A stretch of DNA of 64,000 bases from an uncultured Bacteroidales bacterium (GCA_903916595.1 CAIWXI010000156.1:13461-77460); one strand, 5' to 3'; numbered from the stretch's first letter, positions 10,400 to 53,011 are shown. The notes: generated from the letters alone by a model not told the origin. Program-made: numbers and translations.

Positions 10400-10408
10400 A
10401 GTCTTAAT

Positions 10409-35674: not shown

Positions 35675-36508
35675 GTGGATAAACATAAAAACGCGAAATT
35701 AGTTCAGGCCGTGTTCGGTTTCCTGGAAGCCGTCAATGGAAAACGGGATGCCACGGCTATTTCAGAATTGGTCAGGGAAATGATCGATGAAATTCTCAAA
35801 ACAGAGATCAATGCCTTAGAAGCCGGCCCCGATGCTACTCCTGCCCACTGGAGCCGGCTCGATCATGCTCTCCGTACTCCGATGAACGGGATACTTGGTT
35901 TTACGGAAATTTTGCTGGAAGAACTTACAGACCCTGATATGAAATGGAAAGCCGGGCAGATTCTTTCTTCAGCTAATAAGTTGATGCAGATGTTTGAGAA
36001 TAGCAGTATTTACAGTTATTCTTTGTCTCCTTCTGATGAAATTGCTGCAACGACTCAGCCTTTTGCTTTGATTGAATCACCGTCTCCAAGACCAGGTATC
36101 CCTGCTAAAAAGAAAGCTAAATCGGCGGGAAAAAAACGGCCCAATGTGCTTATCGTTGAAGATAACATGGTCAACAGTAACCTGCTGATGCAATATATTA
36201 AAAAATACTGCAATCTGTTTTTCTCTCAGACAGGCAAAGCGGCGATTGAGGTCGCTCTGCGTGAACATATCGATGTTGTTCTGATGGATATCAACCTCGG
36301 CCAGGGCATGGACGGCACCCAGGCCATGCATGAGATCAGACAACAGCTGGGGAATGAAAACCTTCCTGTCGTTGCTGTGACAGGCTTTGCCGGCAGGGAA
36401 GACCGAGACAATTTTCTTAAGGCCGGGTTTAATGATTTCATCGCAAAGCCCTTCGAACGTCAGGAGGTACTCAGAGTACTGGAAAATTTATTTAAGCAGA
36501 ACGACTGA
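35675..36508 (+). CDS. HisKA(DHp)-receiver protein with no HATPase_c catalytic domain.
   Basis: GTG start preceded by AGGAG. H-box motif LDHALRTPMNGILGFTEIL. Receiver domain from VLIVEDN to VLMDINLGQGMDG to FIAKPF. There is no N, G1 or G2 box anywhere in the 277 aa. Confidence 0.8.
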   Translation: MDKHKNAKLVQAVFGFLEAVNGKRDATAISELVREMIDEILKTEINALEAGPDATPAHWSRLDHALRTPMNGILGFTEILLEELTDPDMKWKAGQILSSANKLMQMFENSSIYSYSLSPSDEIAATTQPFALIESPSPRPGIPAKKKAKSAGKKRPNVLIVEDNMVNSNLLMQYIKKYCNLFFSQTGKAAIEVALREHIDVVLMDINLGQGMDGTQAMHEIRQQLGNENLPVVAVTGFAGREDRDNFLKAGFNDFIAKPFERQEVLRVLENLFKQND

Positions 36509-36692: not shown

Positions 36693-36790
36693 TGAACAAA
36701 AAGCAAAGTTGTTTGCACTATTTTTTTCATAGCCCGGATAATTTTCACATATATTGATTAATTTAGATCTTGAAATTAAGTGCATGTGTC

Positions 36791-39706
36791 ATGAAATCGA
36801 TACTGCTCATGCTTTTCCTGATCCCGGGATTATTTAACAGATCTGCTTTCTCTCAATGGCAGACGATCAGTTCGGGAACGACAAAAACCTTTGTGAAAGG
36901 ATGTTTTGTCAATGATTCAACCGGCTATGTCATCAGCTCCGACGGGCTTGTCCTGAAAACTGCAGACCTTGGGAATTCCTGGAGCCAGTGCGCTTCATTG
37001 CAGGGAATGTTCACCTCGGTATTTAATGTGGGCACCGATACTGTTTATGCCGGTGGCAGCTGCCTGTACCGCAGTGCCGACAAGGGAGCTACCTGGTCGT
37101 TAATCACTGTTTTCGGCGATACAATTGCAGACCTGGGTTTTTTCGACTCCAAATATGGCTTCGCTTTATTCCCGTATTTTTATACTTGCACCTTCGGTTA
37201 TTCGACAGTTGTTTTTGATGATTTTTCCGTTTATAAGACCAGCGACTATGGATCACATTGGGAACTGGCCTTCGGGCAAAAAGACCGTACCAGCAGGTTC
37301 CAGTTCCTTGATCGCAATACGGCATACATCACAGGCTATGTAAGCGGTACCCAGTACCATTGTGTTCCCATTTACTGGATCGATGGTTCTGCTAAAACGA
37401 TGAATTCAGGGAATTCCTGGTCCTCTTTCAACCAGCCTCCCGGAGGCGGATTTCTCTTTTCTTTCATAAACCCTGATACGGGATTCTTTGTTAAAGCTGC
37501 TGCACCCGATTCCTTATACATGACTGCGGATGGCGGAGCGTCTATACAACATACCTACACCGAAATCACCGAACCGGCCCTGAAGCAATGTAAATTCCTC
37601 AGCACGATCGACGGCTACCTGCTGTTTGATCATGAGATCCAGGTGTCGAAATCAGGCGGCTTCGGATGGAAAACCGATTACAGTAATCCGACCACTACTA
37701 TTAATTACATGTTCAGGAGCCCTTCGGATTTCCTGTTTTCAATAGGTGAAAACGGCTTGATTCTGAAAAAGCGATATATCCCAGGCACGCATCCCGACAC
37801 AGTTTACCGGGCAAAATCTGAAGTCGCATTGTTAAGCTTCGGAAACAGGAATGTCAACAGCATCAGGGTAAAATCAACAAGCATAACCAATACTGGTTCC
37901 CGGGCATCTGATTTTAATTTGTATACAAGGGGAAATTACTTGTTAAGCATCGACAGCACGCATTTTGACACAAGTCTTTTGGTTAACCTCATTCCCTTCC
38001 AGGCAAAAAAGATCTATGTGAAATTTCAGCCTCCTTCAGTGCAGTTATTCCTTGACAGCCTGTATGTTAAAACTGAAAACCAGTCCGTCCTGAAGGTGCC
38101 GCTGAACGGAACCGGGGTTATCGGAATATCCGGAATTATTTCACGCGACACCCTGCTTTGTGCCGATACTGTAAGAATTATAGGCAATCTCACCGTAATG
38201 GGAAGTGCCATATTGAGCATTTGCCCAGGGACTTTTATCCAGCTTATGGGAAACTATTCCATTACTGTAAATGGCATCCTCCGGGCCAGCGGAGATTCAT
38301 TGCATAAAATTACTTTCGCGACACAATATCCAGGCCAGGTTTTCCTTGGTCTGATCTTTAATCATGCCGGTTATCAGGATACTTCAGTCATGCAACATTG
38401 TGTTATCACACAAAACGATATAAACCAGTTGACAATTCAACAGGGATACGCTGTAATTGATCATTGTATACTGAGCAATACCTCTTATGCTGCGGTTTAT
38501 TTCTCGGGTTATTCCTCAAAGGGAGCAAGTATTACAAACTGTGAAATTTTTAATACGGGGTATGGGGTGACTGTCTCTGAATGTGATTCCCTGATCCTTG
38601 CGGATAACAACATCCATGATAATGTCAGGCCTGTTTATTGTCACCATGTAAACGGTGCTTTGATAAGTGGAAACAGCATTAACCATAATCTATATGAAGG
38701 GATTGCCCTTTACAGTAACCGCAAAGTTAAAGTAAGTGGAAACAGCATTTTCAGCAATGGAGGGGGAATTCATTTTAAAACAAACGAGTTAGGCTATATG
38801 GATTCTGAAATGAGGATTGAGAATAATGAAATCTTCAATAATACTTACAACAGCTCCGGGGGAGGCTATGACCTGGAGGTCGGAGGAATTACCGGGGAAG
38901 TCATCAGTTCGCCTACTTACATTATTCAAAACCTGGTATACAATAACACTGTTACAACTTCTCCGGGAGCCGGGATAAACCTTTATGGTTTTGGTGACGG
39001 ATTGCCCGAAGTAAACTTGGTCAGCAATACGATCTGCAATAACAGGTCGGGAACAACTGGCCGCCCTAATGAATTCTATGCCGTGTCTTACCAATGGGGC
39101 ATTAATATGAAGATTTTTAATAACGTCTTTTATAATATTTCAACTGCCGACAGCCTGGTCGGATGGAATTCCCATGTCTTTCCTTCCATGGATTTCAACT
39201 GCATCAGACAGTCGGGAATCCCCGGTAATAACAATATCAACGCTGATCCTTCATTCGTTTCCCCAACAACCCAATCGGGACCCATTCCTTTGCCAACGGC
39301 TCCCGACTGGTCGCCGAAAGCTAATTCCCCATGCATTGACAAAGGGGATACGGCCTATAAAGAATTGCAGCTCCCTCTTGATTTTGCAGGTACTCCAAGG
39401 TTTTACAACGACCGCATCGATATAGGTGCCTATGAATACCAGCATTCTCATGGCATCGGTGAACACGGACCGGTCCCGGAAATCTCCGTCTTCCCGAATC
39501 CCGCCCGGGAATTCATTCATATTAAAGCCGAAACGGATGTTCCATGCGGTTTCAGCTTATGCGATCAGCAGGGGAGGGTCGTTTTACAGCGAAATTTCAG
39601 ACATGCTGTAACCATTTCCACGGCAACCCTTGAGCCCGGCGAATTTGTGTGGGTTGTGAAAATCAATGAAAGGTTGATTCTGACAGGGAAGATCCTTGTT
39701 CGCTGA
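36791..39706 (+). CDS. T9SS-secreted protein: BNR/Asp-box beta-propeller, right-handed parallel beta-helix (PbH1/NosD-like) repeats and a T9SS C-terminal sorting domain.
   Basis: Signal peptide from the ATG at 36791. Asp-boxes (TADLGNSWS, SADKGATWS, TSDYGSHWE). Repeated N.I..N...GI beta-helix motifs. The C-terminus (ISVFPNPAREFIHIK...GKILV) is typical of the Por secretion tail. Confidence 0.8.
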   Translation: MKSILLMLFLIPGLFNRSAFSQWQTISSGTTKTFVKGCFVNDSTGYVISSDGLVLKTADLGNSWSQCASLQGMFTSVFNVGTDTVYAGGSCLYRSADKGATWSLITVFGDTIADLGFFDSKYGFALFPYFYTCTFGYSTVVFDDFSVYKTSDYGSHWELAFGQKDRTSRFQFLDRNTAYITGYVSGTQYHCVPIYWIDGSAKTMNSGNSWSSFNQPPGGGFLFSFINPDTGFFVKAAAPDSLYMTADGGASIQHTYTEITEPALKQCKFLSTIDGYLLFDHEIQVSKSGGFGWKTDYSNPTTTINYMFRSPSDFLFSIGENGLILKKRYIPGTHPDTVYRAKSEVALLSFGNRNVNSIRVKSTSITNTGSRASDFNLYTRGNYLLSIDSTHFDTSLLVNLIPFQAKKIYVKFQPPSVQLFLDSLYVKTENQSVLKVPLNGTGVIGISGIISRDTLLCADTVRIIGNLTVMGSAILSICPGTFIQLMGNYSITVNGILRASGDSLHKITFATQYPGQVFLGLIFNHAGYQDTSVMQHCVITQNDINQLTIQQGYAVIDHCILSNTSYAAVYFSGYSSKGASITNCEIFNTGYGVTVSECDSLILADNNIHDNVRPVYCHHVNGALISGNSINHNLYEGIALYSNRKVKVSGNSIFSNGGGIHFKTNELGYMDSEMRIENNEIFNNTYNSSGGGYDLEVGGITGEVISSPTYIIQNLVYNNTVTTSPGAGINLYGFGDGLPEVNLVSNTICNNRSGTTGRPNEFYAVSYQWGINMKIFNNVFYNISTADSLVGWNSHVFPSMDFNCIRQSGIPGNNNINADPSFVSPTTQSGPIPLPTAPDWSPKANSPCIDKGDTAYKELQLPLDFAGTPRFYNDRIDIGAYEYQHSHGIGEHGPVPEISVFPNPAREFIHIKAETDVPCGFSLCDQQGRVVLQRNFRHAVTISTATLEPGEFVWVVKINERLILTGKILVR

Positions 39707-39845: not shown

Positions 39846-39853
39846 TAACTTTG
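39846..39853 (+). promoter_or_regulatory. -7 promoter box TAACTTTG. This is the only recognisable promoter upstream of the ARH-like gene and the chemosensory operon.
   Basis: Exact TAnnTTTG match 29 nt upstream of the ATG at 39883. No such box lies between 40512 and 40547, or in any later gap of the operon. Confidence 0.5.
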
Positions 39854-39882
39854 GATCTTTATAAAATATTATACCTGCATTT

Positions 39883-40512
39883 ATGAACACGGCACGTACA
39901 AATAACCGGAAACATATTCAATCCGCTCTTTTTGGGCTGGCAGTTGGTGACGCCCTTGGCGTTCAACAGGAAGCAGAAAGAAATTGTGTGTTAACAGAAA
40001 TTCTGCCACTCTTATCCGAAATTATCGATAAACCACTGAAGGAACGGTTTAAACAGATCCGGCAAATATCGTTTGTTTCTCACGGTCAGATTCATTCTGC
40101 TATAGCCTGTTTCTATTACCTGGAATTTGCAAGGCTCCTTGCTAAGTCACTTGACAAGTTTGAAGTGTACAGCATCTTAAAAAAAGAAATTCCGGCTAAT
40201 ATGAGTATTCTTGGTTTCAATGGTAATGACCTTGATGCCTTCTACAGGCTTCTGGAGGAGGACATATTTCTCCTGCAGAAATATGAAACTGCAAACTGTG
40301 GATCCGTCATCGAAACCCTTGAAGCAAGTATCTGGTGTCTTCTTACAACCGGTAATTACACCTCAGCAGTCCTGAAAGCGGTCAACCTTGGAAAAAATAA
40401 AGAAAAAATCGCTGCAGTTACCGGTGGACTGGCCGGGCTGTTGTACGGTTATAGCCAGATACCGGGAGAATGGGTAGATGAACTGGCCGGGACGAAGCCC
40501 GGGATTGAATGA
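39883..40512 (+). CDS. Degenerate ADP-ribosylglycohydrolase-family protein with an in-frame internal deletion and lost metal-binding motifs.
   Basis: The N-terminal motif SALFGLAVGDALGV and the C-terminal motif VIETLEASIWCLL...AVNLG.....AAVTGGLAGLLYG match the ARH family. The protein is only 209 aa, against about 300 usually. The usual G(D/E)DTDT motif is replaced by GKNKEK, and the SDD(T/S) region is absent. Confidence 0.65.
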   Translation: MNTARTNNRKHIQSALFGLAVGDALGVQQEAERNCVLTEILPLLSEIIDKPLKERFKQIRQISFVSHGQIHSAIACFYYLEFARLLAKSLDKFEVYSILKKEIPANMSILGFNGNDLDAFYRLLEEDIFLLQKYETANCGSVIETLEASIWCLLTTGNYTSAVLKAVNLGKNKEKIAAVTGGLAGLLYGYSQIPGEWVDELAGTKPGIE

Positions 40513-40531
40513 TTGAATGAATGATTGATTG
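40504..40531. repeat. Short octamer-type repeat ATTGAATG ATTGAATG AATG ATTGATTG.
   Basis: Direct reading. It covers the ARH-like stop codon and most of the 34-nt spacer before the PocR kinase ATG. Confidence 0.8.
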
Positions 40532-40546
40532 CTAAAAGAAATAATC

Positions 40547-42964
40547 ATGGACTATAAACTGGAAGACCTTATAGACGTTCCATTATTACAGAGTTTGCAG
40601 GATAAATTAAATGTAATTTATTCATTTCCATCGGCAATCATTGATAATGATGGTAAAATTCTCACTGCCGTGGCCTGGCAGGATATTTGCACGAAATTTC
40701 ACAGACTGAATTCTGAATGCGTTATAGAATGTGTCAAAAGCGATCAATACATTCTTGACCATATCCATGAAGCCAGTCCGGCAGTAAGTTATCAATGCCC
40801 TCACGGCCTGATCGACAATGCCACCCCGATTGTAATTGATGGTAAACATTTGGGTAATTTTTTTACCGGTCAGTTTTTTCTTGAAGAACCAGATATCGAA
40901 TTCTTTAAAAAACAGGCAAAAAGATTTGATTTTAATGAAACAGATTATTTGGAGGCCGTAAAAAAAGTTCCTGTTTGGACAAAAGAAAAACTTGGCCAAT
41001 ATCTTGATTTTATCAAGGGGTTTATAGAAATCATTGCAAGCCTCGGCCTGAAAAACCTAAAAGAGAAAGAAGCAGAAAAGACCTTGCGGGAGAGCGAGGA
41101 AAAATATTCCATGGCCTTCAACGTATCACCCTACGCTATCGTTATTACGAATATCGAAAATGGAAATTTCATTGAAGTCAATCAGGGTTTTACGTCCATC
41201 ACGGGTTATACTAAAGAAGAGGCTATTAACAGCTCTTCAATCAGCCTTTCATTATGGGTGGATGTGAATGACAGGAACGGAGTGATTTCGGACCTTGGTG
41301 AAGGCAGGGATGTAGTAGGAAAAGAATTCAGGTTCAGAAAAAAAAATGGAGAAATCCTTATTGGTTTATATACTGCCAGTGTTATACAGATAAAGAACAA
41401 ACCATATATTCTTTCCAGTATCAATGATATTACCGATCGCAAGAAGGCTGAATTGGAACTCAGAAAGTTGTCCCGGGCCGTGGAGCAAAGCCCTGTCTCA
41501 ATTGTCATCACCGATCTTGAGGGAAATATTGTGTATGGGAATCCCAAAGTTTGCGAACTTACAGGGTATTCTATCGGGGAACTTGCCGGAAAGAATCCCC
41601 GGATACTTCAGTCGGGTGAAACCCCAAAAGAAACATACAGGGATCTTTGGGACACAATCCGTTCTGGCAATGAATGGAAAGGTGAATTCCATAACAAAAA
41701 GAAAAACGGGGAACTATACTGGGAATCAGTGTCCATCTCTCCGATTATTGATTCTAAGGGAAAAACCACTAATTATCTGGCTGTTAAGGAAGATGTGACG
41801 GAAAGGAAAAACATGGTTACCAGCCTGGAAGCTGCCCTGGTAAAAGCCGAAGCCGGAAACCGCCTGAAAACAGCTTTCATGAATAATATTTCCCATGAAA
41901 TACGTACTCCTTTAAACGGGATACTCGGTTTCAGCAGCTTATTTGCCCTCCACGACATCAGCAGGGAGGAACAGGAGCAGTATTATTCACTGATAAAAAG
42001 AAGCAGTGACCGTCTGCTCAGTACGGTTACAAATTATATGGATATTTCACTCATTGTTTCCGGAACTATGGAAGCAAAAATGAAACGCTTTAATTTACAG
42101 CAATTTCTTCATCAGATACGCGATCAGTTTGATTTGTTGTGCACCGAAAAGAATATTAAAATGCAACTTGAAATCCCCCCTGAATCCGACACTGTCTCAC
42201 TTTATTCTGATCAGGAATTATTGCGGAAGATCATATCCCATCTGCTAGATAACGCGGTGAAATTTACAAGTAAAGGAGGAGTAGGGTTTGGCTACAGGAT
42301 ACTGGCAGGAACACTTGAGTTTTATGTGAAAGATACAGGCATCGGCATCAATAAAGAATCCGGATCGCTGATCTTTGAAACTTTTGTTCAGGAAGAATTA
42401 ACCACTTCCAGGGCGTATGAAGGCAGCGGACTGGGCTTGTCTATTGCCAAAGGATTAGTGCAATTACTTGGAGGTGATATGCGCATAGAGTCTGAAAAGG
42501 GCAGAGGCTCTGCAGTTTTCTTTACTATCCCGTATCAGGAAGTGAATAAAGAAGACCATGTTCCTGAAGCAATTCCTGCCGATGCAAGTGATCAACGCAA
42601 CCCGGTGATTCTGATAGCCGAAGACGATGAATCGACTTTGCTTTTCATTCAGGCTGTTTTCAGGAAAACCCCGGTAAATCTGATAGCTGTAGATAACGGG
42701 ATAGACGCCGTTCAACATTGTCGTGAGCATCCTGAAATTTCACTGGTGATCATGGACATCAAAATGCCTCTGATGGATGGGCTCGAGGCGACCCGGCAGA
42801 TCAAATCATTCAGACGTGATCTTCCAATCATCGCACTTACTGCGTTCGCTATGAGTGGGGATGAAAAAAAGGCCATGGATGCAGGATGCGACGATTATAT
42901 TGCAAAACCTGTTGCGATAGATTTATTATTAAAAAAACTCAAAAAATATGGCCTGAGCCTCTAA
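40547..42964 (+). CDS. Hybrid sensor histidine kinase: PocR ligand-binding domain, 2 PAS, HisKA, HATPase_c, REC.
   Basis: ATG at 40547 (MDYKLEDL). PocR-like motifs C..........YQCPHGL.D...PI...G.HLG..F.GQF. H-box SHEIRTPLNGILGF. G-boxes DTGIGI and GSGLGLSI. Receiver from LIAEDDE to VIMDIKMPLMDG to YIAKP. Confidence 0.88.
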   Translation: MDYKLEDLIDVPLLQSLQDKLNVIYSFPSAIIDNDGKILTAVAWQDICTKFHRLNSECVIECVKSDQYILDHIHEASPAVSYQCPHGLIDNATPIVIDGKHLGNFFTGQFFLEEPDIEFFKKQAKRFDFNETDYLEAVKKVPVWTKEKLGQYLDFIKGFIEIIASLGLKNLKEKEAEKTLRESEEKYSMAFNVSPYAIVITNIENGNFIEVNQGFTSITGYTKEEAINSSSISLSLWVDVNDRNGVISDLGEGRDVVGKEFRFRKKNGEILIGLYTASVIQIKNKPYILSSINDITDRKKAELELRKLSRAVEQSPVSIVITDLEGNIVYGNPKVCELTGYSIGELAGKNPRILQSGETPKETYRDLWDTIRSGNEWKGEFHNKKKNGELYWESVSISPIIDSKGKTTNYLAVKEDVTERKNMVTSLEAALVKAEAGNRLKTAFMNNISHEIRTPLNGILGFSSLFALHDISREEQEQYYSLIKRSSDRLLSTVTNYMDISLIVSGTMEAKMKRFNLQQFLHQIRDQFDLLCTEKNIKMQLEIPPESDTVSLYSDQELLRKIISHLLDNAVKFTSKGGVGFGYRILAGTLEFYVKDTGIGINKESGSLIFETFVQEELTTSRAYEGSGLGLSIAKGLVQLLGGDMRIESEKGRGSAVFFTIPYQEVNKEDHVPEAIPADASDQRNPVILIAEDDESTLLFIQAVFRKTPVNLIAVDNGIDAVQHCREHPEISLVIMDIKMPLMDGLEATRQIKSFRRDLPIIALTAFAMSGDEKKAMDAGCDDYIAKPVAIDLLLKKLKKYGLSL

Positions 42965-42967
42965 CAT

Positions 42968-43462
42968 ATGAACCTCATGCATAGTACAGCAGATTTTTTT
43001 TGTTTCACGATTGAAAACCGTCGATTCGCAATCCCCGTTTCGGTCGTCGATACAGTGATTATGGCTGTGACCGTTTTGCCTGTACCCAATGCTCCTCAGG
43101 TGATCTATGGAGTTTTTGACTTCCATGGAGTGGTTCTGCCCGTGATAAACCTGAGGCAACGGCTGAATCTTCCCGATCAGCCCGTCAGAATCAGCGATGT
43201 ATTTATCGTGGCTGATACGAAAAAAAGGAAACTGGCGCTGGTGGCCGACAGGGCTGTTGGCATAATTACTCCGACGGCAATGGAACTGATTCATGCAACC
43301 GATATTGACCAGGGCTTCGAATCAGATACAATCCTTCATCTGGAGGATGGTATGGTTCTGATCTATGACATTGAAAAATTCTTGTCAGCCCATGATGAGA
43401 TTGAATTGAATCAAGCTTTAGAAAAGCATAACGAAGATAAAACCAAGCCGGATTCTGTATGA
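42968..43462 (+). CDS. cheW: CheW-like coupling protein 1.
   Basis: 164 aa. The CheW fold pattern runs FFCFTIENRRFAIPVSVV ... GVFDFHGVVLPVINLRQRL ... ALVADRAVG. Starts 3 nt after the kinase stop. Confidence 0.85.
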   Translation: MNLMHSTADFFCFTIENRRFAIPVSVVDTVIMAVTVLPVPNAPQVIYGVFDFHGVVLPVINLRQRLNLPDQPVRISDVFIVADTKKRKLALVADRAVGIITPTAMELIHATDIDQGFESDTILHLEDGMVLIYDIEKFLSAHDEIELNQALEKHNEDKTKPDSV

Positions 43463-43971
43463 AAGATGATCAGACCATTCTGGAGGCGAGGGCGAAAAAA
43501 ATACGCGGCCTGGGAAAAAAACAGGAATCACCTGGAGAATCGGCAATGGTTGTGTGCTTTCTCCTGGCCGGAGAATATTATAGTATCGAGAGTATTTATG
43601 TAAGCGAAGTGTTGCGCATGAAGGGCCTCACCCTCATTCCCGGTGCTCCGTCTTTTGTAGTTGGTGTAATGAATAATCGTGGGAAAATCATTCCCGTCAT
43701 TAATCTTAAATTCCTTTTTAACCTTAAAGAAAAAGGACTAATTGAAACGACTACAATCATCGTGTTAAAAAAGGGCGAAATGGAATTTGGCATTGTTGCT
43801 GATGCCATTGAAGGAACCAGGGAAATCTTTTTCAACACCTTAAGCTCCCCGCCGGTTACTATTCAGGGTATAGGCGCTGAGTATATTAAAGGTATCGCTC
43901 AGGATGGACAGATCCTGCTAAACGGGGATCACGTTCTAACGGATAAGACTTTTATTGTCAATCAAAAATAA
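43459..43971 (+). CDS. cheW: CheW-like coupling protein 2.
   Basis: 170 aa. The pattern runs [21 protein letters not shown] ... [19 protein letters not shown] ... [13 protein letters not shown] overlap with cheW-1. Confidence 0.85.
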
Positions 43972-44002
43972 AAAGTTAATTTACGATCTAAAATCAGGAC
44001 CA

Positions 44003-45496
44003 ATGAAATCAACATTCAATCTGAGTACAAGAGCCAGACTGTTTCTGGGGTTTGGTGTTATCATCATTTCAGTCATCATCATTGTGTTGGTGATGCTGAG
44101 GAACATCAGCGAAAGCAATGCGTCTCAGATACTGATGATACGATCTTTTGATATCACGCGATCGCTCACTCAGCTGCGATCAGATGAAAACCGAATCAGG
44201 GCTATGACCCTCGAGATGATCATTTCGAAGGATGTCATAAAAAAAGATACGTTGCAGAAAGCAATCTTTGTGATGGCGGCAGTGGTTGAGAACCGTGTTA
44301 AGGCTCTTGAACAATTGCTCGAAAATTCGCCCTCCGAATTAAACCGGTTCAGGGAGATAGAGAACCTGATGAATCAATACAGGGATAACCGAAAAATCCA
44401 GATTAGTCTGATCCTTCAGGGAAAGTCAGAAGAAGCCATGGTCTTTGCATCCAATGTTCAAAATTCCCTCTACGAGAATATCCGTTCGCGTATCCTGGCC
44501 CTTGAAAAAGATCTCGACACTCACTCGCGTGAAATGGTTACCGGCGACGATGCCTTAGCCCGCACTGAACTCATTACCCTTACCAGTATGGGTGTTGGAA
44601 TGATAATCCTTTCTCTTGTTCTTGTTGGCTGGATGTTACGCATGCTTAGGAAAATCGCAGAAGAGATCAGTACCGGGGTTAATATACTGGGCACTTCGGC
44701 TTCGGAAATCCTTGCAACAGTTACTGAAGTTTCAACAAGTGCTACAGAAACAGCTACCGCGGTCTCGGAAACCACAACAACCATGGAGGAGATCCGTCAG
44801 ACTTCGCTGATGGCAAACCAGAAGGCTCAGTCGGTCCTGGAGAGTGCACAGCGGGCTTCCGATGCGGCCGAAAATGGTAAAGAATCGGTTCAGCAGACTA
44901 TTGACGGGATGAACAAAATCAATCAGCAAATGACGATGATCGCCGACCGGGTAGTGAAGCTTTCCGAACAAAACAGGTCGGTTGGAGAGATCACCTCAAC
45001 CGTGAACGATATTGCTGATCAGTCTAACCTGTTAGCTGTTAATGCTGCTATTGAAGCCGCGAAAGCTGGGGAACAGGGACGTGGTTTTGCCGTGGTTGCA
45101 CTTGAGATCAGGAGTCTGGCAGAACAGTCAAAACAGGCCACGGCCCAGGTCAGGGAGATCCTCAATGAAATACAAAAAGCGGTTGGCCAGGCCGTGCTGG
45201 CTACTGAACAGGGTTCGAAAGCCGTGGAAAATGGCAGCAATCTGGCCCGGCATAGTGGTGAGATGATTGATATTCTCGCCGACACGGTGCGTCAGGCAGC
45301 CCAATCGGTTATTCAAATCTCTGCCACCAGCCAGCAACAGATGAATGGGATGGATCAGATCGTTCCGGCCATGGAAAACATTAAACAGGCCAGTGAACAA
45401 AATGTGACAGGAACCAGACAGACCCAGCTCGCTGCCTATAACCTGAATGAATTAGGCCAGAAACTGAAAGCCATCGTTGAAAAGTTTAACGTATAG
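44003..45496 (+). CDS. Methyl-accepting chemotaxis protein-type transducer: 2 TM, a periplasmic helical sensor of about 170 aa, and a cytoplasmic signalling domain.
   Basis: ATG at 44003 is preferred over the TTG at 43955. TM1 is [19 protein letters not shown] and TM2 is [20 protein letters not shown]. The conserved hairpin tip reads [40 protein letters not shown]. Confidence 0.88.
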
Positions 45497-45502
45497 AGCC
45501 AC

Positions 45503-47623
45503 ATGGATAATAATCAGGAAGCTTTTCTTCTCGAGCTGATGGCCGATTTTAAAATTGAGGCAGCAGAACATCAGCAAGCTATCATCAATGGAATACTTAT
45601 GCTCGAAAAGAAGCCTTCCTCACCCGAATACGAAGATCTTATCGAAACCACGTTTCGGGAGATGCATAGCCTGAAGGGCGCGGCAAGGGCAATTAACCAT
45701 ACTGGCATTGAACGGCTTTGCCAAAGCATGGAAGACATCTTTCATCAGCTTAAAGAAGGAAAGCTTTTTCTTGTGCCTTCGTCTTTCGATGTTCTTTACA
45801 GGGCAACCGATGCACTCTCACTGATGCTTTCAGAGATTGACGCCACGAATAAAAGTATCGGAACCAATACCTTATCCCAACTGATCGCCGGGCTTGATCG
45901 TATCAGGCAGGCTCCCGTCATTCAGGAGAAAATGAGTTTTCCCGTTCTTCCCCCCGTGGAATCAGCCACTTTCGTGAAACCGGTCAATGAAGTAACTGCT
46001 GCAAAAGACACCGTGCGTATCTCGACGTCAAAACTTGCTGCTTTACTCAGGCAGGCTGAAGAGTTTATCACTGTGAAAGCAAGGATGGGGTATTATATTA
46101 AGGAGATCAGGAAACACGGGAATACTGAACTTCTCTTGCTGGGCAAGGAAATGGAACAGTTTCACAGAAGCATGTCTCGTATGGTTGATGACCTGCTGCT
46201 CGACATTAAAACCACCTTGCTCCATCCCTTCTCGGCACTGCTGTCGATCGTGCCAAAGATCGTCAGGGATCTCAGCCACGAATATAATAAAGAGATACAG
46301 CTCAGCATCAGGGGAGGGGAAACTGAAATTGACCGCCGGATACTCGAAGAGATGAAAGATCCCCTGATTCACCTGGTCAGAAACTGTATTGATCATGGGA
46401 TTGAAACGGGGGAGGTGAGAATGCAGCACGGGAAACCGGCCGTGGGGGCTCTTGAGATCACAGTGAGGCAGGAATCGGGGCAGAATGTTGAACTGCGTAT
46501 TTGCGATGATGGGGCTGGCATTGACCGGTCCCGGGTCATTGAATCGGCTGTGAAACAGGGGATTGTAGCCCCTGAAACAGCTGGTAAGATGACCGACAGC
46601 GAGGTGTTCGCTTTGATATTCCGTTCAGGCATCTCGACAAGCCCTTTCATTACTGATATTTCAGGGCGAGGACTGGGGTTGGCTATCGTTTTCGAGAAGA
46701 TTTCCAAACTGGGCGGAAGTATTGTGATCGAATCAAGACAAGACGTGGGAACTACGTTTATCATTACCTTACCGGTAACCCTTGCTGCTTTTCGGGGCAT
46801 TCTGGTAAGGGTTAGCGAACAGTTTTTTATCATTCCCACTAACTCGGTCGAAAAAGCAATAAGAATCCGTTCCAAAGACATCAGTACACTTGAGTCAAAA
46901 AAGATGATCAGGGAGAGAGGAGAAAATATAGCCCTGGTTTGGCTTGGAGATATACTGGGTATTGCCGGCAAGACGATCATGAAAAACGAGGAACATGCCT
47001 TTCCTGTATTGATTCTGTCGTTGGTAAACGTGCGAATCGCATTCGTGATAGACGAAGTGCTGGGTGAATATGAGGTGCTGGTCAAAAGCATGGGACCGAA
47101 GATCCTTCATGTAAAGAACATTTCAGGAGTAACTGTCCTTGGCAGCGGGAAAGTAGTCCCTATCCTTCATATCCCTGAAGTGATGGAATCGGCGATTCAT
47201 AACGTGGCAGGCATCAGCGAAATGGGAACTTCCGATGAAACGGAATCGGCAGAAACGCCCCGTCAGATGATACTTGTCGTTGAAGACTCCATCACCTCCC
47301 GGGCCTTACTCAGGAATATCATCGAATCATCGGGCTATAAGGTAAAAACTGCAGTAAATGGGATGGAGGCGTTCGGTTTTATGCAGAATGAGCGCTTTGA
47401 TCTGGTTGTTTCTGATGTGGAAATGCCTGCAATGAACGGGTTTGAACTCACAGCTAAAATCAGAAATGATCCGGCCCTCTCAGATATTCCCGTAGTTCTC
47501 GTCACAGCGCTCGAATCGGCCAGGGACCTCCAGAATGGAATGGAAGCAGGCGCCAACGCATATATCACAAAAGGCAGCTTTGAACAAAGCAAGCTGCTTG
47601 AAACTATTCAACGTCTGATCTGA
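45503..47623 (+). CDS. cheA: CheA-type histidine kinase fused to a C-terminal receiver (Hpt, dimerisation, HATPase_c, CheW-like P5, REC).
   Basis: P1 motif MHSLKGAARA, N-box HLVRNCIDHGIE, G1 DDGAGID, G2 SGRGLGLAIV, a P5 CheW-like segment, and REC from VVEDS to VVSDVEMPAMNG to YITKG. Confidence 0.92.
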   Translation: MDNNQEAFLLELMADFKIEAAEHQQAIINGILMLEKKPSSPEYEDLIETTFREMHSLKGAARAINHTGIERLCQSMEDIFHQLKEGKLFLVPSSFDVLYRATDALSLMLSEIDATNKSIGTNTLSQLIAGLDRIRQAPVIQEKMSFPVLPPVESATFVKPVNEVTAAKDTVRISTSKLAALLRQAEEFITVKARMGYYIKEIRKHGNTELLLLGKEMEQFHRSMSRMVDDLLLDIKTTLLHPFSALLSIVPKIVRDLSHEYNKEIQLSIRGGETEIDRRILEEMKDPLIHLVRNCIDHGIETGEVRMQHGKPAVGALEITVRQESGQNVELRICDDGAGIDRSRVIESAVKQGIVAPETAGKMTDSEVFALIFRSGISTSPFITDISGRGLGLAIVFEKISKLGGSIVIESRQDVGTTFIITLPVTLAAFRGILVRVSEQFFIIPTNSVEKAIRIRSKDISTLESKKMIRERGENIALVWLGDILGIAGKTIMKNEEHAFPVLILSLVNVRIAFVIDEVLGEYEVLVKSMGPKILHVKNISGVTVLGSGKVVPILHIPEVMESAIHNVAGISEMGTSDETESAETPRQMILVVEDSITSRALLRNIIESSGYKVKTAVNGMEAFGFMQNERFDLVVSDVEMPAMNGFELTAKIRNDPALSDIPVVLVTALESARDLQNGMEAGANAYITKGSFEQSKLLETIQRLI

Positions 47624-47633
47624 ATGATGCATA

Positions 47634-48695
47634 ATGGCTAAAAAAATACGGGTTCTGATCGTTGAAGATGTGGTGACGGTGCAGGGTTTACTCAAAGGAA
47701 TCCTCGCTCAGGATCCGGCATTCGAGGTAATCGGGACTGTTGCTGATGGTGAGAAGGCAGTTAGATTCGTCGCCAGCTTACATCCCGATGTGGTGAGCAT
47801 GGACATCTTTATGCCGGTGATGGACGGAGTAGAGGCGACTATGCTGATCATGCAGCAGAATCCTGTTCCCATTGTCATCGTGAGCAGCCTGTATAATCCT
47901 GATGAAGTCAGCATGTCGTTCAAAATCCTTGAAGCTGGAGCACTCACCATTCTTCCAAAACCCTTTGGCCCGGGCCATCCCCTATATACTCAGACAGCGA
48001 AAAATTACAGGAACACACTCAAACTGATGTCGGAAATCAAAGTTGAAAAGCGTCGTGTACTTTATAATTCCATAGGCCCGCACCTTGAAGCAGAATCGTC
48101 GGTTCTCCGCTCAGGGAGTCATCCGTTTGAAGAATTTAAAATAATCGCCATTGGTGCATCGGCAGGAGGTCCTGTTGTTATCCGGGAGATTCTCAGGGAC
48201 CTGCCGAAGAATTTTCCTCTTCCTATCCTGCTCGTTCAGCATATCGATGCCAATTTTACGAATGGGTTTTGCGATTGGCTGAATTCTACATCCAACCTTC
48301 AGGTGATTATAGCTCAGAACAGACAGAAAATGTTGCCAGGTCATGTCTACATGGCACCGGGAGATCATCATTTAGGCCTGGAAAGTGAGGGAATTATTTC
48401 TATCACTAAAGCCCCTCCCGAGAAAGGTCTGAGGCCTGCCGTGAGCTATCTTTTCAACCAGGTCGCAAGAATTTATAAAAAGAATGTAATCGCAATTCTT
48501 TTATCAGGAATGGGAAGTGATGGAGCCCCGGAATTGAAAATATTGAGAGAAAATGGGGCTTTTACTATTGCCCAGGATGAAGCGACTTCCCTTGTACACG
48601 GTATGCCGGGGGAAGCTATCCGGATTGGCGGGGCCTGCAAGATCCTTTCCCCTGCGAGAATTGTTGAGGAACTCAGGAACATTGTAATACCTTAA
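47634..48695 (+). CDS. cheB: Protein-glutamate methylesterase/glutamine deamidase CheB (REC plus esterase).
   Basis: REC from VLIVEDV to VSMDIFMPVMDG. Catalytic Ser in IGASAGGP, His in LVQHI, and Asp in GMGSDGA. Confidence 0.92.
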   Translation: MAKKIRVLIVEDVVTVQGLLKGILAQDPAFEVIGTVADGEKAVRFVASLHPDVVSMDIFMPVMDGVEATMLIMQQNPVPIVIVSSLYNPDEVSMSFKILEAGALTILPKPFGPGHPLYTQTAKNYRNTLKLMSEIKVEKRRVLYNSIGPHLEAESSVLRSGSHPFEEFKIIAIGASAGGPVVIREILRDLPKNFPLPILLVQHIDANFTNGFCDWLNSTSNLQVIIAQNRQKMLPGHVYMAPGDHHLGLESEGIISITKAPPEKGLRPAVSYLFNQVARIYKKNVIAILLSGMGSDGAPELKILRENGAFTIAQDEATSLVHGMPGEAIRIGGACKILSPARIVEELRNIVIP

Positions 48696-48705
48696 AAAAT
48701 ATCAT

Positions 48706-49971
48706 ATGGTTACTTCGTCTCAGATCAATTTAGGCTCAGGCTATATCATGGCTGTTGAAGATTCAATGGTTCAGGCAAAACGATTGCAGTATTTTTTTAA
48801 TGAGAATAATATCACCAATGTCTTCTATACTAATGCGATTGATGCCTATGCTGCCGCTCTTGAAAGATCACCTGTTCTCATCCTCAGCGACATCGTGATG
48901 CCCGGGATGGATGGCTATGAGTTTTGCTCAAAACTCAAGGCTCATCCAATATTAAAGGATATACCAGTCATCCTGCTTACTTCACTTCGTGATCCGCTTG
49001 ATATCATCAAAGGATTACAGGCCGGGGCTGATAATTTTATAACCAAGCCCTATAATGATCAATACCTGCTGTCGCAGATCCATTATCTGCTGACAAACAA
49101 CGAAATAGGAAAATCAGGTTCTGCCGAGAATGTGATCGTAATCATGTTCAGGGGAAAGAAATATACTATCAATTCAGCGAAAAAACAGATACTCGATCTG
49201 CTGTTATCGGTGTATGAAGCAGCTGTTCAACGTAATGACGAACTTATCTCAACCCAGGCCAAGCTCGAAGCCTCGAACGAAAACCTGATCGAGGCTAATC
49301 ATGAACTGGAGGCTTTCTCCTTTACCGTATCTCATGATCTGCGTAACCCTTTGAATGTTGTTAGTGGCTATAGCCAGATTCTTGAGAAAGATTATTCCTT
49401 TTGCCTGGATCCTGAGGCCGTACAATTTCTGCAACGGATCCAGAAAGCTACGATATCCATGGCAAAACTTATTGAGGATCTGCTGAATTTTTCCCGTTCA
49501 GGCCGAACCGAGCTTCAATCGAAGCGGATTGATTTGAGTGAGATGGCCAGAAATGTGGTTTCAGACATTGAAAGCCAATACCCGGAGCATAAAGCCAAAT
49601 TCTTTATCCAGGAAGGGCTTGCTGCTGAGGCTGATGCCAACCTGATGCATGTGGTTATCGATAACCTGTTTAGCAACGCTTATAAATATTCCGGCAAAGT
49701 TGAGAATCCTGAAATCAAATTCGGCAAATTTGTGGCCAATCCCGGAAATTGTTTTTTTATAAAAGATAACGGTGCGGGATTTGACATGTCAAAGGCCGAT
49801 AAATTATTTGACCCTTTCCATCGTCAGCATACCAATTCCGAGTTTCAGGGAACTGGTGTGGGTCTTGCCACTGTAAGGAGAATCATTGAACGCCATGGGG
49901 GTCGTGTCTGGGCAGAGTCAGAGCCCGAAAAAGGAGCTACTTTTTATTTTTCATTGCCCATCGTAAAATAA
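48706..49971 (+). CDS. Receiver-histidine kinase fusion (REC, coiled coil, HisKA, HATPase_c); last gene of the chemosensory operon.
   Basis: REC from YIMAVEDS to ILSDIVMPGMDG to FITKP. H-box FSFTVSHDLRNPL. N-box LFSNAYKYS. G-boxes DNGAGFD and GTGVGLATV. Confidence 0.88.
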   Translation: MVTSSQINLGSGYIMAVEDSMVQAKRLQYFFNENNITNVFYTNAIDAYAAALERSPVLILSDIVMPGMDGYEFCSKLKAHPILKDIPVILLTSLRDPLDIIKGLQAGADNFITKPYNDQYLLSQIHYLLTNNEIGKSGSAENVIVIMFRGKKYTINSAKKQILDLLLSVYEAAVQRNDELISTQAKLEASNENLIEANHELEAFSFTVSHDLRNPLNVVSGYSQILEKDYSFCLDPEAVQFLQRIQKATISMAKLIEDLLNFSRSGRTELQSKRIDLSEMARNVVSDIESQYPEHKAKFFIQEGLAAEADANLMHVVIDNLFSNAYKYSGKVENPEIKFGKFVANPGNCFFIKDNGAGFDMSKADKLFDPFHRQHTNSEFQGTGVGLATVRRIIERHGGRVWAESEPEKGATFYFSLPIVK

Positions 49972-52898
49972 AAGGTACTTCCTTTTCCTTCTTCGCTCTC
50001 GACCCATAATCTTCCGCCGTGCTTTTCAATAAAATCCTTGCAAATGATCAGTCCCAGGCCGGTGCTGGATTCGTTTTCAGTGCCTTTGCGGCTTGTGTTA
50101 ACGTCTAATTTGAAAAGATTATCAACCATTTCCTGTTTCATTCCGATCCCCGTATCTTTAATAGAGATTTCAACATACTTGCCGGAAATTTGTTTTGCAG
50201 CAATGGTAATTGTTCCCGATCTTGGAGTAAACTTCACTGCGTTGGAGGCCAGGTTTCGGATAGTGGATGAAAGCATGTATTCATCGGCAAAAATTTCCAG
50301 ATCGCCGGGAATTTCATACCTGATTTCTATTCCTTTTTTATTTGCCATATCCATTGCCGGGGGGATAATTGCAGAAATCATAGGCATCAATAAGAACGAC
50401 TCAGGATTAAAGTTTGTAATGCCCCTTTGCAAGCGTGCCCACTCCAGCAGGTTTTCGAGTAAGCCAAACAGATTGGTGGCGGTGTCTCTCATATTCCTTG
50501 CTATCTTTTGAATCTCATCCTGGTTCAAGTCTGGCACTTCTTCGGCCATCAACTTCGTCAACCCTAAAAATCCATTGAAAGGGCCGATAAGGTCGTGGGC
50601 AATGATTGAAAAGAATTTATCTTTTTCGGCATTGAGTTCCAATAATTTCTTGTGGTTACGCTTTATTTCATTCTCAGCCCGCATGCGTTCGGTGATGTCG
50701 TGAACGAGGGAATACAGCAGCGTCAAATGACCGAATTTTATAGGGTTGGAATATACTTCAACATTGCGTACATTGCCGTTGGCAAGCCGATGCTTAAATA
50801 TGAAATAGTTGCGTTTTTCTTCTTTGGCAAGTTGCATTTCTGCTGAAACTTCACTTAAGGAGGATGTGTTGATTTCTGAAATGTGTTTTTTGCATATTTC
50901 GGCAAGCGACCATCCGTAATACTTGCAGGCTGCAGGATTTGCATCGTTGATTGCCCCTGTATCAGGATCAATAAGGAGCATAATGGAATGGTTATTCTGA
51001 AAAATCGATTTATAACGATCATCGCTTTCATGAAGCAATTTTTCAGCCTGCTTGCGAGCCGAGATGTCGCGCCATGCAATAAACAAGGCGTGTTTCCCTT
51101 GCAGCATCATGGCCGCAATGGAAACCTCGACAATAAATTCAGACCCGTCAAACCGACGATGTAACCACTCAAAGCTGTTAGTGCCTGTATTCAAGGCATC
51201 GTTGATCTTTTGCAGCGCCGATTCTGTTGATTTTCTTCCATCGGGCTGAAATTCGGGTGACAGTGCATCGGGGGTCTGTCCGGTAATTCGCAGCCGGTCA
51301 CCATGTAACATCACTTCGGCGGCATGGTTACAATCAACAATTACACCATCAATGATGATCAGGTAGGCATCGGGTGAATCCATAAACAGGATGCGGTGTT
51401 TTTCTTCGCTCTCGCGCAGCGCCTCTTCCGCCCTCTTCCGGTCGCCGATGTCGCGTACAACGAAAATCATTTGCAATGGCTGCCCTTCTGCATTCCGAAT
51501 GAATTCGCCATTCACTTCTATGTCGAAGATGGTTCCGTTTGCTCGTAATCCTTGGTATTCGCCAGGCCCCTGCATGATACCCTGGAACATGAGCATAATG
51601 TTCGATTGAGCTCGCTCCAGATCGACCGTTGCAATGAAATCAGACAGGGTAAGTCCAATGAATTCTTCCTGCACTTCGCCCCCGAACATTTTTACTCCTG
51701 CAGGCGAAACCATGAGAATCCGACCCCCGAGGTCGGTGATAGTGATGTTGTCGGGAGATGCTGCAAGGATAGCGCGGTACTGTAAATCACTATCATGTAA
51801 ATCTTTTTCGGTTTTAAGTCGGTTTCTGATCTCATTTTTAAGGTTTACAGACGAAGTATAAAAGAAGTATGCTGCAGATCCGATAATCACAATAATCAAT
51901 AAAAACACTGAAATCCATTTCCATGGGATCTTCATTCCCTGCTTCATGTAATCGGAATAAAGTAGTCCTTCGGTTGTAAACGAAGGATCAAGCATCTTCA
52001 ATTTTTTGTAAGTCTCCGCTATGGATTCCCATCTGCCGGGATTGGTGTAACCTGGCTCGACAACATCGGCCATTATAAAGTGTTTCATCCGCTCTGCTTC
52101 AAACTGCAAATGTGCCACACTATGTCTTTGACTGTACCTGGAATAAATCAATTCAATAATCTCTTGCGGATGGTCCATCGCGTATTGCCATCCTTTGAGC
52201 GAAGCTTTCCGGAAGTTGTCTGCTAATACAGGATCCCTTTTGATCAATGCTTCGGTAGTAAACAACACGTCACCGTAGAAATCAATGCCACCCATCGATG
52301 GGGAGATGATGGTGTAATCAAAGTTTGATTCTTTTAAAGTGAAAGGTTCATCGGTCGAATAAGCCGAGATCGCGTCGATCTTGCCGTTTATGAGCTTATC
52401 TGCATTGAATTTATGTTGATCAATGATGCATCTGTTCAGTGAAACCCCTTCATCGTTCATGAAAGCAATGATGTCGGCCGCATTCGGCTCCATGGCGATC
52501 CTTTTTCCGATCAGGTCCTGTACATGTTCAATGCCTGATTGCTTTGATGCCAGCAAAATCTGGGGCGAATGCTGAAAGATCGTTGCTAAAACAACCCCGT
52601 TCTTCTGCCGCGAACGCATGAGCAGAATATCCGAAGTGCAAACCCCGAATTCTGCCTTCCCTTCGTACACGGCCTCACTTGGATTCCGGCCTTCAACGGC
52701 TTCAAGCAGATTAACATGGATCCCGGCATCCTTGTAGTAACCTTTCTCAATGGCCGCGTAATAACCGGCAAACTGAAACTGATGTCGCCATTTTAGTTGT
52801 AAGGTCACATTCCTCAATTTTTCTGATCTCAATGGGGGAATCATCAAAGAAATTGCGAAAAGAACAGCCAGATATTTTAACGAAGAATTCATGTACAT
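49944..52898 (-). CDS. Sensor histidine kinase: periplasmic NMT1/SsuA-like substrate-binding domain, TM, about 4 PAS, HisKA, HATPase_c.
   Basis: ATG at 52898 or 52892 is preferred over the TTG at 52931. SBP-like motif QLKWRHQFQFAGYYAA.EKGYY...G. TM is WISVFLLIIVIIGSAAYFFY. H-box FFSIIAHDLIGPF. G-boxes DTGIGM and GLGLIIC. Confidence 0.85.
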   Translation of the reverse strand: MYMNSSLKYLAVLFAISLMIPPLRSEKLRNVTLQLKWRHQFQFAGYYAAIEKGYYKDAGIHVNLLEAVEGRNPSEAVYEGKAEFGVCTSDILLMRSRQKNGVVLATIFQHSPQILLASKQSGIEHVQDLIGKRIAMEPNAADIIAFMNDEGVSLNRCIIDQHKFNADKLINGKIDAISAYSTDEPFTLKESNFDYTIISPSMGGIDFYGDVLFTTEALIKRDPVLADNFRKASLKGWQYAMDHPQEIIELIYSRYSQRHSVAHLQFEAERMKHFIMADVVEPGYTNPGRWESIAETYKKLKMLDPSFTTEGLLYSDYMKQGMKIPWKWISVFLLIIVIIGSAAYFFYTSSVNLKNEIRNRLKTEKDLHDSDLQYRAILAASPDNITITDLGGRILMVSPAGVKMFGGEVQEEFIGLTLSDFIATVDLERAQSNIMLMFQGIMQGPGEYQGLRANGTIFDIEVNGEFIRNAEGQPLQMIFVVRDIGDRKRAEEALRESEEKHRILFMDSPDAYLIIIDGVIVDCNHAAEVMLHGDRLRITGQTPDALSPEFQPDGRKSTESALQKINDALNTGTNSFEWLHRRFDGSEFIVEVSIAAMMLQGKHALFIAWRDISARKQAEKLLHESDDRYKSIFQNNHSIMLLIDPDTGAINDANPAACKYYGWSLAEICKKHISEINTSSLSEVSAEMQLAKEEKRNYFIFKHRLANGNVRNVEVYSNPIKFGHLTLLYSLVHDITERMRAENEIKRNHKKLLELNAEKDKFFSIIAHDLIGPFNGFLGLTKLMAEEVPDLNQDEIQKIARNMRDTATNLFGLLENLLEWARLQRGITNFNPESFLLMPMISAIIPPAMDMANKKGIEIRYEIPGDLEIFADEYMLSSTIRNLASNAVKFTPRSGTITIAAKQISGKYVEISIKDTGIGMKQEMVDNLFKLDVNTSRKGTENESSTGLGLIICKDFIEKHGGRLWVESEEGKGSTFYFTMGNEK

Positions 52899-53011
52899 AA
52901 TGTTGATTTCTTGTTTTATTAAAAAGGTCAATACCTGCTATGCTACAGATGTTAAATATAGTAATAAATTTGTAATTATTTGTGATCAGCGCCAATAATG
53001 TAAAAAAAATG

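Follow-up and report, generated by a model that had tools for sequence, protein, structure and literature searches.

Gene Content and Organization of the Cluster

We analyzed a chemosensory gene cluster in a 64,000-nucleotide stretch of DNA (the window; GCA_903916595.1, CAIWXI010000156.1:13461-77460) from the metagenome-assembled genome (MAG) of an uncultured Bacteroidales bacterium that is common in metagenomes. Open reading frames (ORFs) were called and the window was scanned with Pfam and NCBIfam profiles, all ORFs of at least 150 aa being compared with Pfam. Eight ORFs on the plus strand lie head to tail between positions 39883 and 49971, with gaps of 34, 3, −4, 31, 6, 10, and 10 nt. The first is a 209-aa ORF resembling ADP-ribosylglycohydrolases (ARH-like; 39883-40512), in which the Pfam match to ADP_ribosyl_GH is limited to profile positions 139-286. 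It is followed by an 805-aa hybrid sensor kinase (40547-42964) with PocR, PAS, PAS, HisKA, HATPase_c, and receiver (REC) domains recognized by Pfam and NCBIfam, for which the ATG at 40547 is the best start and an in-frame TTG lies at 40529. Two CheW coupling proteins come next, CheW 1 in the position of WspB (42968-43462; Pfam CheW, E = 9e-23), whose orthologues occupy the first cheW slot in related clusters, and CheW 2 in the position of WspD (43459-43971; E = 2.4e-27).

The remaining four genes encode a 497-aa MCP chemoreceptor, CheA, CheB, and a second kinase. The receptor (44003-45496 from its ATG) contains 4HB_MCP_1 and MCPsignal domains by Pfam, and the use of a TTG at 43955 would turn the 31-nt gap that separates it from the second cheW into one of −17 nt. 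CheA (45503-47623) combines Hpt, HATPase_c, and CheW domains with a C-terminal REC (Pfam, NCBIfam), and by inspection its H55, its N, G1, and G2 boxes, and D638 are intact. CheB (47634-48695) has a REC and a CheB_methylest (methylesterase/deamidase) domain (Pfam E = 1e-56; NCBIfam CheB score 318 bits, above the cutoff of 293), with D57, S176, H203, and D296 in place. The last gene (48706-49971) encodes a 421-aa protein with REC, HisKA, and HATPase_c domains (Pfam, NCBIfam), termed here the terminal kinase, in which D62, H210, N324, G1, and G2 are likewise intact.

These ORF coordinates agree with an earlier note on this DNA that had described eight co-oriented genes with gaps of −4 to 34 nt; every domain that it named in the eight genes was recovered by Pfam and NCBIfam, and the 3-nt gap that it gave between the PocR hybrid kinase and cheW was reproduced. 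Its statement that cheR, a stand-alone cheY, cheZ/C/X, and flagellar and pilus genes are all missing is borne out within the 64 kb. No CheR-like sequence is present in any frame of the window at E ≤ 1e-3, and neither a stand-alone CheY or CheZ/C/X nor a flagellar or type IV pilus gene was found by Pfam among the window ORFs of ≥150 aa; flagellar and pilus genes are likewise absent from the flanks of related loci. There is no single-domain REC in the window, where receivers sit only on kinases or CheB, and no DNA-binding response regulator was found there. The rest of the window contains housekeeping genes, including those for FtsK, ParAB, ClpXP, trigger factor, SmpB, and RecF. The exact CheA protein is present on 95 contigs, and the NCBI proteins MEI6887762.1 and MFZ4571886.1 come from closely related strains.

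Related Loci Share the Gene Order and Usually End in a Kinase

The neighborhood sample comprised loci of CheA homologues, one GTDB locus (L004), 80 metagenome loci obtained through a CheA alignment, and one locus (L090) found through the terminal kinase, all annotated with profiles built from the window proteins. The GTDB genomes were scanned with CheA alone using very specific peptide patterns, and L004 was the one true relative recovered. Homologues of CheA numbered 7753 at E < 1e-30, and the best 120 of them all share the CheA-REC architecture except for one truncated sequence. Among the matches listed, further 90%-identity clusters number at least 119 for this CheA (47-83% identical) and at least 119 for the terminal kinase (55-81% identical), in both cases from Bacteroidales and Bacteroidota MAGs. 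The terminal kinase is the better conserved of the two proteins, as its 120th-best 90% cluster is 55-57% identical vs. 48% for CheA.

A recurrent gene order, cheW-cheR (with TPR, ~488 aa)-cheW-mcp (~497 aa)-cheA-REC-cheB-[REC-output], is seen in about 60 related loci, among them most of the 80 metagenome loci and L090. The arrangement in the window is therefore not a chance one, since it is found again in numerous species and on many separate contigs. By contrast with this core, the flanking genes are wholly different between related loci. A search of the plasmid collection with CheA also yielded a Niveispirillum replicon with a syntenic cluster (37% identity) that has no REC-output gene after cheB.

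The gene after cheB was collected wherever it was complete in relatives with a CheA at least 41% identical to that of the window, and each of the resulting 54 was scanned against Pfam. REC is present in 53 of them, HATPase_c in 43, HisKA in 42, GAF in 15, and PAS in 11, while GGDEF and EAL are found in four each. Because 42-43 of the 54 are REC-kinases and only four contain GGDEF, a REC-kinase is the usual output for relatives of this CheA, indeed the norm for the lineage, and a WspR-type cyclase is the minority case. Within the neighbor-joining clade that holds the window, a 416-426-aa orthologue of the REC-HisKA-HATPase protein is the last gene product at 18 of the 19 loci whose downstream gene is complete. 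The sequences of that clade with a named source are labelled Bacteroidales, Bacteroidota, or Mariniphaga, with the exception of one partial sequence labelled Saccharofermentanaceae. In the survey of related loci, for which the earlier note had called, the same cluster is widespread and the REC-kinase is its usual last gene. On an 838-kb contig (L090) there are two paralogous 421-aa REC-kinases (296-1561 and 10001-11266), one at the usual cluster end and the other 1.2 kb upstream of cheW.

The Terminal Kinase as the Probable Output

The proteins encoded at the ends of these clusters share a segment of ~45 residues after REC, regardless of the effector (VIVIMFRGKKYTINSAKKQILDLLLSVYEAAVQRNDEL in the window protein). 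It carries the module F.G.K..I.S...QILDLLLS.YE.A (residues ~143-180 of the window protein), which is common to REC-kinase, REC-PAS/GAF-kinase, and REC-GGDEF/EAL outputs, and no Pfam family covers it. An AlphaFold (AF2) model of the terminal kinase, built from 64 orthologues, has a mean predicted local distance difference test score (pLDDT) of 77.7 and predicts a single helix, residues 160-233, that runs into DHp and carries H210. This modeled linker geometry is as expected if REC phosphorylation passes through the signaling helix to the kinase core. The mechanism that we consider most likely, and on balance probable, is an alternative cellular function (ACF)-type array whose phosphorylated CheA (CheA-P) controls a dedicated REC-histidine kinase.

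The terminal REC-kinase could also act in the reverse sense, as an input or a sink, with the true output elsewhere, for example via the hybrid kinases; in that case a receiver on CheA or on a hybrid kinase would be the substrate of its kinase module, or its REC would drain phosphate from CheA. We regard such a role as unlikely. It would account for the fact that no cognate regulator is encoded nearby and has a precedent in the REC of Rhodospirillum centenum CheA3, which acts as a phosphate sink. In some relatives, such as L057 and L066, the REC-linker forms a small protein of its own and a hybrid kinase comes after it. The receiver closest to the REC of the terminal kinase within the window is also that of CheA (E = 9e-17, vs. 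1e-10 or weaker for other receivers), and this similarity of the two would suit a sink; it also fits the CheA REC and the kinase REC being substrates of the same Hpt. However, the last-gene slot in relatives is also held by REC-GGDEF, REC-EAL, and other effector fusions that have this REC-linker module in common, a fact that speaks for the terminal kinase as an output, and the motifs of the kinase are strictly conserved.

The Receptor and CheA

The receptor has hydrophobic segments at residues 23-55 and 204-235 and a four-helix bundle between them that is predicted to be periplasmic. It lacks a HAMP domain, as the second transmembrane segment ends near residue 228 and the signaling domain of ~285 aa follows directly. 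From the hairpin tip at E373 to the C-terminus there are 140 residues (20 heptads), and in a pairwise alignment the protein is 28 residues longer than the 36H receptor Tsr, so that by residue arithmetic its estimated length fits the 40H class. Orthologues across the clade are of 496-506 aa and conserve the EE and QQ candidate modification sites. HAMP is absent from most of them, and only L018 and L021 have 41 residues inserted where HAMP would be. In some relatives a further receptor gene of divergent orientation adjoins the cluster, as in L007 (3794-5617, minus strand), L012, and L014, on the 5′ side of cheW in the latter two; that of L007 combines Fe-hydrogenase-like and 4Fe-4S domains with MCPsignal.

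CheA has one Hpt domain, a linker without P2, the P3-P4-P5 domains, and the C-terminal REC. The NCBIfam CheA models span residues 166-559, neither Pfam nor NCBIfam gives a match to a P2 domain, and the Pfam H-kinase_dim match falls below threshold.

Repeated Loss of cheR

In 17 of the 21 clade relatives the two cheW genes are separated by a CheR-TPR gene. Among these relatives are L006-L008, L012, L013, and the closest cheR-positive one, L004 (a Bacteroidota MAG), whose CheA is 68% identical to that of the window and whose CheR-TPR is 486 aa long. This cheR gene is absent from the window and from L009, L010, and L014. In the window and in the sister species represented by L009 (83% identical), the cheW genes abut or overlap with nothing between them, the overlap in the window being 4 nt. 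Given that CheR-TPR is present in 17 of 21 relatives, the missing cheR is, as judged by gene order, a secondary deletion and not ancestral design. Moreover, L010 and L014 each group with cheR-positive loci in the CheA tree, and this implies at least three independent, clean cheR deletions, cheB being retained in every case.

A Wsp-type CheR has probably not simply been relocated elsewhere in the genome: the best 120 homologues of the L004 CheR-TPR are found on at most eight contigs each, vs. 80-104 contigs for proteins of the host species, a suggestive result from a proxy search that a CheR of a different family would escape. In the lineages without cheR the receptor keeps its candidate modification sites, TTTxEE and SxxQQQ, unchanged, and no E-to-Q (methylation-mimic) changes were found at these sites in the cheR-less receptors. 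As cheR has been deleted in this lineage, adaptation based on methylation has probably disappeared, unless deamidation by CheB and phosphate drainage persist as its remnant.

The clean loss of cheR, with no Wsp-type orthologue of host-species contig abundance among those 120 homologues, could be taken to mean that the cluster is decaying in this lineage and is no longer a functional sensory pathway, and the ARH remnant and the insertion sequence found before the PocR kinase in one strain (both described below) point the same way. We think this improbable, since much of what is seen speaks against decay. None of the seven signaling genes is shortened, all catalytic residues are intact, and the candidate methylation sites are unaltered. 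The proteins are 80-83% identical to those of the sister species that shares the cheR deletion, which indicates that the signaling genes persisted after cheR was lost. The exact CheA occurs on many contigs, as given above, and L010 and L014 lost cheR independently and retained the rest.

The PocR Hybrid Kinase and the Kinase Neighborhood

The PocR hybrid kinase shares 80% identity with its positional counterpart in L009. It is also 48% identical over 502 aa, covering the second PAS, the kinase core, and REC, to a REC-PAS-HK-REC gene product of L004 that is encoded 9 nt upstream of cheW, and a similar REC-PAS-HK-REC gene precedes cheW on the P0009 contig. More distant relatives have unrelated genes upstream of cheW. 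Because the L004 match extends over the second PAS, core, and REC only, the sequence comparison indicates that the PocR kinase is the accessory kinase of a narrow subclade in which the sensor domain has been exchanged and the core conserved.

Many other kinases are encoded near the cluster. In a 277-aa protein (35675-36508, plus strand), which is seen on ~104 contigs and has a conserved counterpart in the sister species (L009 2688-3524), a phospho-acceptor HisKA helix (H64 in DHALRTPMNGILGF) is paired with a complete receiver (D205), and the ATPase domain is missing. Within the local kinase network this protein might act as a phosphotransferase or phosphatase of the DHp type. Between 49944 and 63886 there are six more sensor kinases in 14 kb (NMT1-PAS, Tll0287-like-PAS, three PAS kinases of which one is a hybrid, and a TPR hybrid), and the first of these converges on the terminal REC-kinase with an overlap of 28 nt.

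No Hpt domain besides CheA P1 was found in the window, which encodes four proteins with HisKA and a C-terminal receiver (three complete hybrid kinases and the one without an ATPase domain). As the sole Hpt found in 64 kb beside these four proteins, P1 might serve as a shared phosphotransfer hub by which the PocR kinase, a sensor of small molecules, and neighboring kinases are linked to the array. The cluster would then be a non-adapting, CheR-less multikinase integrator instead of a linear Che pathway. The Bacteroidota version could on this view be a distinct ACF subclass whose dedicated REC-kinase output carries the conserved hairpin-helix module beside its REC that has no Pfam match. We see this as a possibility of low probability.

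The ARH-Like ORF, a Candidate Promoter, and the Upstream Region

The ARH-like ORF, which the earlier note had counted among the genes of the operon, does not belong to the signaling system. The ORF keeps an N-terminal GLAVGDALG motif, after which ~110 profile positions are missing. It is absent from the corresponding site in the sister species (L009), and the other members of its 90% cluster, from other strains, are fragments of 92-125 aa. In one strain (L002) an insertion sequence with DDE_Tnp_1 and DUF4372 (L002 3830-4999) lies between the ARH-like ORF and the PocR kinase (window ~40513-40546), and there the PocR kinase is called 41 residues shorter. A functional role of the ARH-like protein in the system was therefore rejected on four grounds, namely its half-length profile match, its absence in L009, its fragmentary state elsewhere, and its separation by the insertion sequence in L002. 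It is a decaying, co-transcribed passenger and probably non-functional.

The sequence TAACTTTG at 39846-39853 (plus strand), 30 nt 5′ of the first ORF, matches the Bacteroidetes-type −7 consensus TAnnTTTG and is the sole plus-strand TAnnTTTG in 39846-52964. We propose it as a candidate promoter for the whole co-oriented block. It is a lead and not proof, because the total count of TAnnTTTG in the window, where many other matches also lie just 5′ of gene starts, is not above chance. In the sister locus L009 there is no TAnnTTTG match upstream of the PocR kinase, which leaves the lead uncorroborated there. A scan for sigma-70 promoters and terminators was discarded, as the counts were at shuffle level and the sigma-70 consensus is inappropriate for Bacteroidota.

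Upstream of the block by 177 nt is a gene for a beta-helix protein sorted by the type IX secretion system (T9SS; 36770-39706, plus strand). The protein is 978 aa long here vs. 714 aa in other strains (L001), and the sequences that flank a 257-aa block (residues 604-860, Beta_helix/NosD repeats) agree at 100% identity; by this comparison the length difference would reflect a true indel between strains or, alternatively, a repeat that collapsed when the other strains were assembled.

Myxococcus offers an example of gliding under Che-like control (Frz). With this precedent, and with T9SS cargo genes in the host that include the one next to the block, the cluster might be thought to serve gliding, T9SS, or other non-flagellar motility, as a true taxis pathway in which the REC-kinase is an intermediate. 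Several features make this a remote prospect. The window contains no CheY-like single-domain regulator and no gld, spr, or pil genes, and the T9SS neighbor is absent in L009. The complete difference in flanking genes between relatives means, in addition, that the cluster has no conserved linkage to a motility apparatus.

Proposed Mechanism

Control of the terminal kinase by the array, the mechanism that we favor, may be envisaged as follows. The receptor, the two CheW proteins, and CheA-REC would assemble into a membrane array in which a periplasmic or envelope signal alters the autophosphorylation of CheA at H55. The phosphoryl group would then pass from CheA to three receivers: its own REC (D638) as a sink or regulator, the REC of CheB (D57) for feedback on the receptor, and the REC of the terminal kinase (D62) as the output step. 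Phosphorylation of D62 would act via the conserved hairpin and the long helix continuous with DHp to switch the kinase/phosphatase balance of the HisKA-HATPase module, and this module would in turn control a response regulator encoded elsewhere. Such wiring would resemble that of R. centenum, in which the flow is from CheA3 via the first receiver of CheS3 (REC1) to the CheS3 kinase and CheY3. The PocR-PAS hybrid kinase has been recruited beside cheW and would probably provide a second input to the same phosphorylation network.

Five points weigh against this mechanism. The direction in which phosphate would pass between CheA and the terminal kinase is proposed by analogy. Neither the cluster nor the 64-kb window contains a cognate response regulator or CheY as a target for the proposed output. 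The beta-hairpin at residues 143-156 of the terminal kinase linker is modeled by AF2 with low confidence (pLDDT ~50). The PocR kinase appears to be tied to the Che proteins solely by an adjacency conserved within a narrow subclade. Finally, the loss of cheR might be a sign that the pathway is degenerating.

Significance and Comparison with Known Systems

Our analysis shows that a conserved pathway driven by a chemoreceptor, and probably addressed to a histidine kinase, is widespread among non-flagellated, uncultured Bacteroidales. The relatives provide a compact natural series, with and without cheR and with swapped sensors on the accessory kinase, that should be useful for studying adaptation in ACF pathways and the targets of their control. 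The cluster does not represent a new signaling principle, as the architecture was catalogued in 2012 (PMC3447774) and the phosphate flow was worked out in R. centenum. For specialists, the points of interest are the recurrent state in which cheR is lost and cheB kept, the HAMP-less receptor, the linker module, and the dense kinases with P1 as the sole visible Hpt.

By synteny, by architecture, and by the CheR-TPR of its relatives, assignment of the cluster to the Wsp-like, non-flagellar, ACF-type chemosensory pathways is supported, if indirectly. This was also the view of the earlier note, and it is in keeping with the gene order of the relatives, with the ACF CheA architecture listed in MiST, and with the 40H-compatible receptor. 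The core of an ACF system, consisting of MCPsignal, two CheW, and an Hpt-HATPase_c-CheW protein, is encoded together in the window. A multidomain response regulator is a distinctive ACF feature (PMC3447774), and in the window a REC-HisKA-HATPase_c protein is found in place of a single-domain CheY. The CheA has Hpt, dimerization, HATPase_c, CheW, and Response_reg domains and no P2, which is the architecture given for ACF CheAs in the MiST-based Table S2 of PMC10782961. The window cluster does not, however, encode the CheR-TPR of such systems.

In the block of ACF rows of that table that was examined, Schleiferia thermophila is the one Bacteroidia isolate (PMC10782961). The view that Che arrays are rare in the phylum hence holds for RefSeq isolates, as far as those rows go, but fails for Bacteroidales and Bacteroidota MAGs with their at least 119 further clusters each of CheA and the terminal kinase. 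Our search of the literature library found no paper on a characterized Che or ACF system in Bacteroidota, and for this reason such a system is uncharacterized at the level of this phylum.

As pointed out in the 2012 survey of 132 CheR-TPR genes, ~40% of the associated regulators have HisKA and HATPase domains, the CheR-TPR clusters are assigned to ACF, and REC phosphorylation is proposed to modulate autokinase activity (PMC3447774). The searched text of that survey has no mention of Bacteroidetes. The window cluster is of the same class as the survey set but has lost the CheR-TPR that defines it. The earlier note had considered an array that feeds a histidine kinase to be unusual and without a characterized example. 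That claim does not survive the ~40% in the survey, the Che3 system of R. centenum, and the predominance of REC-kinases among the 54 genes analyzed here.

The cluster is like Wsp in having one MCP, two CheW (which in the relatives flank CheR-TPR), CheA-REC, CheB, and a REC-effector as the last gene, in serving a purpose that appears to be other than motility, and in its receptor class, as a WspA orthologue is reported to be 40H (PMC11253619) and the window receptor is compatible with 40H in length. It differs in that the effector of Wsp is a GGDEF diguanylate cyclase (WspR) and that of the window a histidine kinase, as the earlier note had recognized: Pfam and NCBIfam find HisKA and HATPase_c and no GGDEF, the WspR structure (PDB 3i5a) matches the terminal protein in REC alone (E = 6e-12), and GGDEF occurs in only four of the 54 related clusters. 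The mcp gene is the first in Wsp but follows the second cheW in the window cluster, and the lack of HAMP in the receptor and the deletion of cheR are both unlike Wsp.

In Myxococcus xanthus, Che3 feeds the CrdS/CrdA two-component system (PMC3147164), and, like the window cluster, it has no CheY and belongs to a Che-like pathway acting on another two-component system. There, however, CheA3 and the kinase CrdS work in parallel on the NtrC-like CrdA; the regulator is known, and no REC-kinase fusion is the target (PMC3147164).

A further comparison is with the Che3 system of R. centenum, which consists of MCP3, CheW3a and CheW3b, CheR3, CheB3, CheA3-REC, the hybrid kinase CheS3, and CheY3, and in which CheA3 phosphorylates the first receiver of CheS3 and thereby shuts off the CheS3-CheY3 pair, the CheA3 receiver being a phosphate sink (PMC3868531, PMC4436063). 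Its host is a flagellated alphaproteobacterium in which the output is cyst development, whereas the host of the window cluster belongs to the Bacteroidales. CheS3 has two receivers and PAS and is of the HWE type, while the window kinase has one REC, is of the HisKA type, and has no PAS, and Che3 encodes both CheY3 and a CheR, of which the window cluster has neither. Compared by description, the two systems share one dedicated MCP, two CheW, CheA-REC, CheB, and an in-cluster second kinase with an N-terminal receiver. The wiring of Che3, in which CheA regulates a histidine kinase by way of its receiver, is that which we propose for the window cluster.

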